Source of the DNA: Escherichia phage 121Q
DNA: 64,000 nt
Sequence record: NC_025447.1
Direction: 5' to 3' (one strand)
The translations under genes were made by a program, and so were the position numbers. The notes beneath the pieces are model-generated. The model ran no database searches. It worked only from the letters and a program-made list of their open reading frames with translations, and was not told the origin of the DNA. Shown piece after piece: positions 42,186 to 43,461 of this stretch (positions are counted from its first letter, which is position 1; every line of letters starts with the position of its first letter).

Positions 42186-42214
42186 CTTGACTAAATAGTT
42201 CAGTACTGTATAAT
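42186..42214 (+). promoter_or_regulatory. sigma70-type early promoter (repeated cassette copy 1)
   Basis: TTGACT AAATAGTTCAGTACTG(17) TATAAT. Confidence 0.65.
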
Positions 42215-42245
42215 GTTTGTATCTTAACTTATATGGCAACTTGAT

Positions 42246-42599
42246 ATGTTTAGTGAATATGAAGAAGCAATAAAACGCAACCTTGAAGATTATAAATTCC
42301 AATTTTATATTTGGGATAAACTGATGAGATTGTGTTTACAGTGGATGGAAAATGAAGAAACTCCTGACCAACGAACTGTTATATTAAACATCTTGTTACA
42401 TAAAGATCTTAGTTCAATTAATATTGAAGTTTCTACTTATGTAGGAGAAGATTATAATCCCTATATTTCATATACTTCCCCTGTACCAAAGACAGAAGAA
42501 GAATATTTTCAAATGAGTACTGTACAAGAACCATTGTTCACTTATGAGTTCTATAAGTACTTGGTTGGTGAATTCAAAAAAATGCGAATTAATTCTTGA
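42246..42599 (+). CDS. EE-x-FFQ-x-S motif family protein (member 14)
   Basis: EEEYFQMSTVQEP. Confidence 0.55.
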   Translation: MFSEYEEAIKRNLEDYKFQFYIWDKLMRLCLQWMENEETPDQRTVILNILLHKDLSSINIEVSTYVGEDYNPYISYTSPVPKTEEEYFQMSTVQEPLFTYEFYKYLVGEFKKMRINS

Positions 42600-42630
42600 C
42601 TAAATAATTCAGTACTGAGGATATTAATAT
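42596..42630 (+). promoter_or_regulatory. degenerate copy of promoter cassette (copy 2)
   Basis: TTGACTAAATAATTCAGTACTGAGGATATTAATAT; -35 and spacer conserved, -10 degraded. Confidence 0.35.
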
Positions 42631-42665
42631 GTTTAAAGATGAACGTCCAGATTTGTAAAAAGTAC

Positions 42666-42694
42666 TTGACTAAATAGTTCAGTACTGATATAAT
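42666..42694 (+). promoter_or_regulatory. sigma70-type early promoter (repeated cassette copy 3)
   Basis: TTGACT AAATAGTTCAGTACTGA TATAAT. Confidence 0.65.
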
Positions 42695-42699
42695 GAATT

Positions 42700-43050
42700 C
42701 CACAATCAGACGTATATGGTGTAAGCTACGTCGATGCAATCCAGAACAAGATCTCTGGTACTCTAGGAAGTGGTGAATGTTAACCTAGACGGGTTTGATA
42801 ATTGGACGATAGGCAATTATTACTTGACTAGCAGGTTGAAACTAGAGGTGACAGTCCTTCACCAAACTGGAAAACCGGATGGACTTTTATTTAAAAGGGT
42901 AAGGCGTGGAAATATGTTTACAGAAGTTGCTTTTAGTAGCCTGTACGCCCCACGACAAGGTAGCCGAAAGGTAAGTTAAAACGGGTGGTTATAAAGCTGA
43001 ATTAACAGCGGCGTTTAAAAGCGTCACCATCCATTTTTTTAATTAAAGTT
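42700..43050 (+). ncRNA. candidate structured non-coding RNA downstream of early promoter
   Basis: About 350 nt between a consensus promoter and the next RBS with no convincing ORF, locally GC-richer, several hairpins including GGTGACAGTCCTTCACC and a GAAA-loop stem. Confidence 0.3.
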
Positions 43051-43056
43051 GGCGAT

Positions 43057-43428
43057 ATGAGTGTTAAAGACATTTCAAAGTATGAAGAGTTTCTTAAATC
43101 ATTTTTGAATTCAAAATTAACGACAGACCATACCAATAACTGGTGTAAAGATAATCCTGGAATTCGCATTTTCAAGGAATATGGTGAATCATTTCTTATA
43201 AATGACGATGTAATTGTTTTTGAATCATTTGAAGAAATAAAAAGGACAAATAACACTTTACGTGATATAATAAATAGTATAAATTCTCAATACATTACCT
43301 TCCAGCTAAGTGCTGATGAAGAAGATGAATTTCAGAAACGTACAGTATATGAAAATGTGTTCCCACATGAATTAAATTCTGTGATAATTAAAGTGTTGGA
43401 TAAGGTTTTTTCTGAAAATAGTACTTGA
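43057..43428 (+). CDS. EE-x-FFQ-x-S motif family protein (member 15, divergent)
   Basis: EEDEFQKRTVYENVF. Confidence 0.5.
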   Translation: MSVKDISKYEEFLKSFLNSKLTTDHTNNWCKDNPGIRIFKEYGESFLINDDVIVFESFEEIKRTNNTLRDIINSINSQYITFQLSADEEDEFQKRTVYENVFPHELNSVIIKVLDKVFSENST

Positions 43429-43432
43429 CTAA

Positions 43433-43461
43433 ATAGTTCAGTACTGATATAATAAACAAAT
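43433..43461 (+). promoter_or_regulatory. sigma70-type early promoter (repeated cassette copy 4) driving the tRNA cluster
   Basis: TTGACT AAATAGTTCAGTACTGA TATAAT. Confidence 0.65.

Follow-up and report, generated by a model that had tools for sequence, protein, structure and literature searches.

A fixed AGTACT palindrome in promoter cassettes of Escherichia phage 121Q and an excess of the same word across RaK2-like jumbo phages

RaK2/PBECO4-like phages are among the largest coliphages and are considered for therapy, and they are largely uncharacterised. Here we analyse a 64,000-nt stretch of one of them, Escherichia phage 121Q (NC_025447.1; hereafter the window), in which a promoter-like cassette of about 30 bp is repeated with the palindrome AGTACT between its -35 and -10 hexamers. 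TF1 of phage SPO1 and similar phage proteins bind preferred early-promoter sites and also phage DNA generally. T4-type phages carry promoter-early stem-loop (PeSL) cassettes (PMC2839356, PMC4122927). RpoD-like early promoters are described for CBB, GAP32 and PA5oct (PMC5259590, PMC7318152). In cyanobacteria, the highly iterated palindrome HIP1 (GCGATCGC) is thought to have its role at the level of the DNA or the nucleoid (PMC5861425). Early promoters of the RpoD type and PeSL-type shuffling are already known. Our literature searches, which covered the RaK2, CBB, PA5oct and Sharanji papers as well as a 2026 review, turned up no description of an AGTACT promoter element or of a genome-wide AGTACT excess. 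The feature is real, and its genome-wide component makes it more interesting than first noted: one 6-bp word both stands in most promoter-like sites of the terminal repeats and is selected at about 800 sites per genome.

By megablast, the window is closest to Asteriusvirus jumbo phages of E. coli (PBECO4, 121Q-like, G17, JP4; 93–96% identity), which have genomes of about 350 kb each. The cassettes lie in a variable stretch of transfer RNAs (tRNAs) and small open reading frames (ORFs). The initial annotation reported near-identical copies at 42186, 42666 and 43433 and a degenerate copy at 42596. The observation is sound apart from small coordinate errors, and as a whole it is partly confirmed. 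The first two copies are where they were placed, the degenerate one starts at 42595, and the third was 9 bp off, the exact 30-mer CTTGACTAAATAGTTCAGTACTGATATAAT being found at 42665 and 43424. The copy starting at 42186 has a spacer 1 nt shorter (..CAGTACTGTATAAT). Table 1 lists these copies together with the other features discussed below.

Table 1. AGTACT-bearing promoter-like sites and longer AGTACT palindromes in the window.
Feature	Position	Strand	Details
Cassette copy 1	42176..42214	+	A-tract; -35 TTGACT 42187-42192; AGTACT 42202-42207; 16-nt spacer; -10 TATAAT 42209-42214
Decayed cassette copy	42595..42625	+	TTGACTAAATAATTCAGTACTGAG; ruined -10-like GATATT
Cassette copy 2	42661..42694	+	AGTACT 42661-42666 overlapping -35 TTGACT 42666-42671; spacer AGTACT 42681-42686; TATAAT 42689-42694
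Cassette copy 3	43420..43453	+	AGTACT 43420-43425; -35 43425-43430; AGTACT 43440-43445; -10 43448-43453
Two ATTCAGTACTGAAT palindromes	45377..45511	+	Perfect 14-mers at 45377 and 45498; predicted closing stem of ~135-nt non-coding element
Two TCAGTACTGA copies, 35 bp apart	47262..47309	+	End of ORF 46988-47272; predicted 10-bp hairpin, -13.2 kcal/mol, z -3.1
Fourth promoter of the same design	60615..60642	+	Unrelated 5' spacer: TTGACAgaagatatcAGTACTGTATAAT; AGTACT placed as in the cassettes
Promoter with AGTACT fused to -35	60963..60991	+	TTGACAGTACTG...TATAAT; different, rarer placement, seen too in fEgEco12 and RaK2

Their anatomy and downstream genes mark the copies as putative sigma70-type promoters. 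The consensus score is 11/12 at 42187, 42666 and 43425 and 12/12, with no hexamer mismatch, at 60615. The hexamers are 16–18 nt apart and preceded by A-rich tracts, and the sites are intergenic and face a gene or tRNA on the same strand; copies 2 and 3 also have a TGn extended -10. These sequence features support the earlier description as strong early promoters. Copy 1 lies upstream of ORF 42246-42599 and is conserved in JP4, PBECO4, G17, CMSTMSU and fEgEco12. Copy 2 precedes a variable segment (42.7–43.05 kb) and then ORF 43057-43428. Copy 3 holds the position of a promoter before tRNA-Ser(ACU)-Met-Asn (43464-43802), and its 3' end is a recombination junction. The RaK2 homologue of this tRNA-Ser promoter keeps GTTCAGTACTGATATAAT and has a different -35. 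Two further promoters, at 60615 and 60963, had been said to hold the palindrome; the former has it where the cassettes do, and the latter has it directly fused to the -35. Allowing at most one mismatch, TTCAGTACTGAA has 14 matches against 0.38 expected.

As a class, these promoters resemble those of CBB, GAP32 and PA5oct in their TTGACA/TATAAT hexamers, UP-like tracts and concentration upstream of short early genes and on terminal repeats. They differ in the AGTACT element, of which the accessible text of those descriptions makes no mention.

This two-fold symmetric element stands at a fixed position in many independent promoters of two genera. In the window, it occurs in just 5 of about 27 intergenic promoter-like sites, three of the five being cassette copies. 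A scan of IMG/VR (2.9 million viral contigs) for TTGAC-N9-CAGTACTG-N0-1-TATAAT returned 14 loci, nearly all from this clade, with 7 matches in one 348,532-bp contig taken as 121Q-like and 8 in RaK2. Most of the promoter-like sites listed in these loci bear AGTACT at the identical place, with differing 5' spacers. We then counted, among all promoter-like sites, those whose AGTACT begins exactly 15 nt downstream of the initial T of the -35 (+15). For RaK2 200–250 kb the count was 19/48 against 0.24 expected (Poisson P about 1e-29), all of them within 216.5–242.6 kb and 18 within 226.8–242.6 kb. For fEgEco12 325–374.7 kb it was 15/32 against 0.16 expected, all within 354–373 kb, and for the window 4/41 against 0.09 expected (P = 0.004 with the three copies counted once). 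The surveyed structural and replication regions of PBECO4, RaK2, GAP32 and CBB contained no promoter with AGTACT at +15. The initial annotation had allowed that the motif might show no positional enrichment in promoters; these counts argue otherwise.

The consensus of 50 such promoters is aaaaA(G/A)tac-TTGACA-N9-AGTACTG-(N)-TATAAT. Its 5' spacer half is variable, which argues that these are independent promoters and not copies. Many of the RaK2 promoters also have AGTAC immediately ahead of TTGACA and so carry two sites at a distance of 20 bp; AGTACT-N14-AGTACT pairs number 18 in RaK2 against 1.25 expected. In phages Muenster and fENko-Kae01, the counterparts of the promoter-rich regions are annotated as terminal repeats. 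AGTACT density in the promoter-rich regions is 6–8 per kb over all DNA and 12.7 per kb between the genes of RaK2. Given the match to terminal repeats, we assume that the promoter-rich region enters the cell first. The location of the class on terminal repeats in relatives suggests that its members are presumably immediate-early, and that the cassettes, too, would be early.

Some other elements recur near these promoters. Just 3' of class promoters, in loci L024, L027, L032 and L033, we noted a start region of the form ..aCATCAA, GGGGA...TCCCC hairpins and a CTAACCCACAGGG-like box. The same loci have palindromes centred on AGTACT in 5' untranslated regions, e.g. GGGAATCAGTACTGATTCCC.

Beyond promoters, AGTACT is a selected, iterated palindrome genome-wide in the clade, and samples of the host and of other phages contain few copies of it. 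The initial annotation cautioned that the word is generally common in this DNA, and rightly so. The window has 145 sites, where dinucleotide shuffles predict 15.9 and base composition 21.9; no other hexamer is as over-represented, and the mean spacing is 433 bp. Favoured flanks are symmetric (C...G), and CAGTACTG is found 30 times in the window against 0.6 expected. In 816 pooled sites there is no extended footprint past C(-1)/G(+1). ORFs hold 129 of the 145 sites, distributed 57/25/43 over the frames. This in-gene count compares with 37.7 ± 5.3 under a synonymous-codon shuffle and 20.3 under a codon-order shuffle, an excess that points to selection or a directed process at the DNA level. The same shuffles (38 and 20 vs 129) and the use of all three frames rule out codon or dipeptide bias as the source. 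The sites show an even distribution over the window and within genes, slightly more even than a Poisson process (coefficient of variation 0.88), and favour no part of a gene.

Observed/expected ratios are 5.5–8.0 for 44–50-kb samples of PBECO4, fEgEco12, RaK2 (Alcyoneusvirus), GAP32, XbC2 and CBB (Mimasvirus), and the 5.5–8-fold excess holds in seven samples from three named genera. The ratio is 0.18 in PA5oct, 0.23 in T4, 0.48 in ICP1, 0 in PaulScherrer and 0.26 in 50 kb of E. coli K-12. Outside the terminal-repeat end, the density in sampled regions of the ~350-kb genome is about 2.3 per kb, and the word is about 35-fold rarer in the host. To assess conservation, we compared AGTACT sites with composition-matched control hexamers in 22.6 kb of aligned core genes, using relatives at 82% and 77% identity. 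Conserved sites were 21/38 and 22/38 (55–58%), against 28.6% and 23% of controls (P = 5e-4 and 4e-6). Each genome also has many private sites, which suggests that density is kept via turnover.

AGTACT is like HIP1 in being a short palindrome far above expectation, found within and between genes, and conserved above background. It differs in being a hexamer of a phage clade, in its lower fold-excess (6–8x, and ~50x for the octamer in the window) and in having a clear fixed promoter position. Two other candidate sources were set aside. A footprint of very-short-patch-type repair or deamination is rejected, as AGTATT-like neighbours are not depleted and differences between orthologs fall over all six positions. 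The LexA box shows a half-site resemblance only (TACTGTAT, by eye), without a second half. As a separate observation, hexamers such as TGGTGA, CTGGTG and ACTGGT are also 4–6-fold over-represented in the window and in the GAP32 and XbC2 samples, which may be a codon effect (GGT, GAT) or Chi-like.

The suggestion that the cassettes provide homology for recombination between accessory modules is supported by alignments to relatives. Alignments of the window to JP4, PBECO4, CMSTMSU and fEgEco12 all end at 43453, the last base of copy 3. On the 3' side of this base, PBECO4 and CMSTMSU have a different tRNA-Ser module, and JP4 has both tRNA-Ser modules, each behind its own cassette. In G17, the copies at 42596 and 42666 are merged into one intact promoter and 42732–43054 is missing. 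Within 39–49 kb, 5 of 28 distinct breakpoints fall inside promoters (1.06 expected, P = 0.004), and cassette copies number 2–5 per Asteriusvirus genome. These comparisons indicate that the cassettes are sites where gene and tRNA modules are inserted, deleted and swapped, probably by PeSL-like homologous recombination. This also accounts for where such modules are exchanged in these genomes.

PeSL cassettes share several of these traits. They, too, are strong early promoters of the sigma70 type, present in multiple copies and preceded by A/T-rich tracts; they lie where small ORFs and tRNAs make up a variable region, and indel or replacement junctions between close relatives fall on them. Unlike in PeSL, the extra element here is a 6–8-bp AGTACT palindrome at a fixed spacer position instead of a stable GGGG...CCCC terminator hairpin, and the AGTACT word is hyper-abundant in genes as well. 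A search of the cassettes for a PeSL-type terminator stem-loop gave at best a fold of -8.9 kcal/mol, seen in 2/3 copies, with no T-run and not conserved in RaK2 or fEgEco12 promoters. A separate promoter class of related loci (GGGTTGACTtcGGTCAgCCCttttgtTATTAT) is a closer structural match to PeSL than the cassettes are. Its -35 lies inside a terminator hairpin (aaaGGGTTGACTtcGGTCAgCCCttttgtTATTAT), forming a terminator/promoter composite; it is seen in L033 (RaK2 202–224 kb), L034, L022 and L025 and is not present in the window.

Our preferred explanation, to which we give about even odds (probability roughly 0.5), is that the cassettes are duplicated members of a clade-specific sigma70-type early promoter class of RaK2-like jumbo phages, in which AGTACT is bound by a phage-encoded protein. 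The design would be an A-rich tract, (AGTAC)TTGACA, nine variable bases, AGTACTG, zero or one base, and TATAAT. The postulated protein would be two-fold symmetric, DNA-binding and possibly delivered with the virion. Bound at a single site or at two sites spaced by 20 bp, which bracket the -35 and abut the -10, it would control early transcription, the simplest outcome being shut-off. Through the sites dispersed within genes, the same protein would act genome-wide, for example in marking or organising phage DNA versus host DNA. The terminal TG of AGTACTG may also serve as an extended -10 in the forms with a 17-nt spacer.

The element is self-complementary, fixed in place, sometimes doubled at two helical turns, shared across genera and near-absent elsewhere, and is therefore most simply read as a protein-binding site. 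A site placed directly against the -10 and flanking the -35 would suit repression, i.e. early shut-off. The concept of a phage protein that reads phage DNA genome-wide and shuts off early promoters is that of SPO1 TF1. TF1 differs in that it recognises hydroxymethyluracil DNA and not an AGTACT hexamer, and we know of no TF1-like protein in the RaK2-like clade. AGTACT is a concrete handle on the control of early transcription and on the distinction between self and host DNA, and it predicts a specific binding protein or modification. Its promoter signature is also a simple aid for annotation.

Several points weigh against this explanation. Pfam scans gave no candidate AGTACT-binding protein among window proteins, and nothing above the curated thresholds that would point to DNA binding among ten proteins of the RaK2 promoter-rich region. 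Operators would be confined to regulatory regions, and here 129/145 sites (89%) are intragenic and without an adjoining promoter signal, which means that promoter regulation cannot be the sole role of the word and may not even be its chief one. No promoter model accounts for the roughly 800 intragenic sites in each genome. Eighteen RpoD-like promoters are listed for CBB (Mimasvirus), apparently without AGTACT between the hexamers as far as the accessible text goes (PMC5259590). CBB does have the genome-wide excess, so promoter element and excess may be separate phenomena. Ordinary extended -10 function accounts for one part of the element, the TG. Finally, the case for promoter activity and timing is made from the sequence and, in relatives, from the terminal-repeat position. 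Of the operator proposed in the initial annotation, the fixed AGTACT offset in many promoters stands; its regulator did not emerge from the Pfam scans, and the dispersed intragenic sites are left unexplained. In the RaK2 promoter-rich region, the product of ORF332 (L033:30247-30744) has a sub-threshold match to the N-terminal dimerisation domain of H-NS (E = 1.7e-4, 21.9 bits vs a cut-off of 24.5).

A broader and more tentative view, which we would not favour as it stands, takes AGTACT as a self-marking word of RaK2-like jumbo phages. One reader protein, possibly carried in the virion, would find the word densest at the end assumed to enter first, where paired sites would bracket the -35 of most terminal-repeat promoters. 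It would time transcription there and tell phage from host DNA for protection, organisation or packaging. The ~35-fold contrast with the host and the gradient towards the terminal repeat suggest such a marking or organising role, HIP1-like in spirit. If true, sequence alone would do in these phages what base modifications or a nucleus-like shell do in other large phages. We know of neither a nucleus-like shell nor hydroxymethylcytosine in RaK2/PBECO4-like phages.

Among the rivals to a phage-encoded AGTACT-binding protein, the most serious, although itself unlikely, is that AGTACTG is intrinsic to RNA polymerase, an extended -10 TG plus a favourable spacer for host sigma70, with no dedicated regulator and with the genome-wide excess a separate matter. 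It has the canonical -15/-14 position of TG in the 17-nt-spacer forms (AGTACTGG-CATAAT) on its side, as well as the G that follows AGTACT in 48/50 class promoters compared to about 42–47% of genome-wide sites. Immediate-early promoters also need to function ahead of any phage protein. However, the conserved block reaches five bases past TG, TG is non-canonically placed in the 16-nt-spacer forms, and a second AGTACT overlaps the -35, 20 bp away, far above chance. The architecture is near-absent from other viral contigs, so it is not generic to strong promoters, and identity with the top genome-wide word would have to be a coincidence.

We find it doubtful that AGTACT is instead the target of a phage DNA methyltransferase or base modifier, whose modification state would time early promoters and whose marks would be used genome-wide, as for HIP1 or Dam-regulated promoters. 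Elhai reportedly linked the iterated palindromes of cyanobacteria to methyltransferases in 2015. The clade encodes several methyltransferases (RaK2, PMC3622015; Sharanji, PMC11895373), N6-adenine enzymes among them, and a C5 enzyme is found in the window, a 286-amino-acid C5 DNA methyltransferase at 30483-31343 whose nearest solved structures are the catalytic domains of DNMT3A/B/C. A DNMT3-like enzyme fits the CpG methylation that bisulfite data indicate for RaK2 (PMC3622015), but AGTACT has no CpG. Homologues at 45–51% identity occur in rV5-like coliphages and ICP1, and PaulScherrer and ICP1 have them yet show no AGTACT excess. C-to-T changes are not dominant among site losses, and AGTATT/AATACT are not depleted. 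The window enzyme is an unlikely reader of AGTACT, being DNMT3-like, with CpG methylation in RaK2 and homologue-bearing phages without the excess. Its neighbours gave a sub-threshold MutS_IV match only.

It is very unlikely that the paired AGTACT words of the promoters owe their effect to folding of the nucleic acid (a PeSL-type stem-loop, a terminator or an attenuator) and not to protein binding. Copies 2 and 3 do fold as AGUACU-UGACU...AGUUC-AGUACU (-8.9 kcal/mol, z -2.35), and PeSL stem-loops can overlap the -35 (PMC2839356). But copy 1 has no hairpin (z +0.27), most class promoters have a single spacer site only, and in RaK2 and fEgEco12 promoters the sequence between AGTACT sites is non-complementary, so that a 6-bp A/T-rich stem remains around a 14-nt loop, again with no T-run.

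Structure has a better claim on the longer palindromes elsewhere in the window, where the pairs at 45377/45498 and 47263/47298 are predicted to make conserved stems and look structural rather than operator-like. Perfect 14-bp palindromes had been reported at all four positions; those of the first pair are exact (ATTCAGTACTGAAT), and those of the second shrink to 10-bp TCAGTACTGA (CTCAGTACTGAAA and GTCAGTACTGAT). The first pair would close a ~135-nt element (window 45361-45530) whose sequence identity across Asteriusvirus genomes is 97%, compared with only 82% for their core genes. The predicted closing stem is 14–15 bp, and a RaK2 homologue (L010:5072-5232) has compensatory changes in the inner hairpins. 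We consider the element a candidate stable RNA, located near tRNA genes and without an Rfam match. For the 47263/47298 pair, CMSTMSU and fEgEco12 keep the predicted stem by a G-U pair and lose AGTACT.

A binding protein for the promoter element also faces two weaker rivals. The element could be a by-product of general oligonucleotide bias and simple duplication of the three copies, with nothing promoter-specific about it. AGTACT is the top hexamer throughout the window and three of its promoter occurrences are copies of one sequence, but the idea is hardly credible: it is contradicted by unbiased surveys, in which two genera show AGTACT enriched ~80–100-fold at a single exact offset with variable flanks. 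Enterobacteria, which make up most of the sampled hosts, carry the nucleoid-occlusion protein SlmA. Least credible of all is that the sites are SlmA-binding sites (SBS; consensus GTGAGTACTCAC), which share the AGTACT core and the enterobacterial hosts (PMC3020112) but are rejected on their flanks, as no full GT-R-AGTACT-Y-AC 12-mer occurs in ~370 kb with 816 sites, the required G and T at SBS positions 1–2 are not enriched, and G just before AGTACT is avoided (7% vs 17%).

Some observations concern the surroundings of the cassettes. An Rfam scan of 40–48 kb returned tRNAs only. The 42.7–43.05 kb segment 3' of copy 2, missing in G17, has no significant fold (z -1.2). The tRNA-Ser at 43464-43555 (ARAGORN call, same annotation in G17) has the unusual anticodon ACU, which reads AGU. 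It might compensate for surplus AGU codons, because intragenic AGTACT is most often read in the frame AGT-ACT (Ser-Thr). Upstream of copy 1, at 41690-42176, there are three similar tandem ORFs of 54 amino acids (165 bp) each; their copy number and order vary in relatives, and several alignment breakpoints fall there. As has been noted for CBB, the phage encodes a sigma-70-family protein of its own (57267-58232), which is RpoD/RpoS-like, has regions 2, 3 and 4 and could direct a later promoter class. In fEgEco12, 330–349 kb (L034) holds an array of ~15 minus-strand genes of similar size, mostly annotated as chromosome condensation regulator (RCC1-like) or putative DNA condensation protein. The window has a single 384-amino-acid ORF, at 51316-52470 on the minus strand and without a Pfam match, that may be related to this array.

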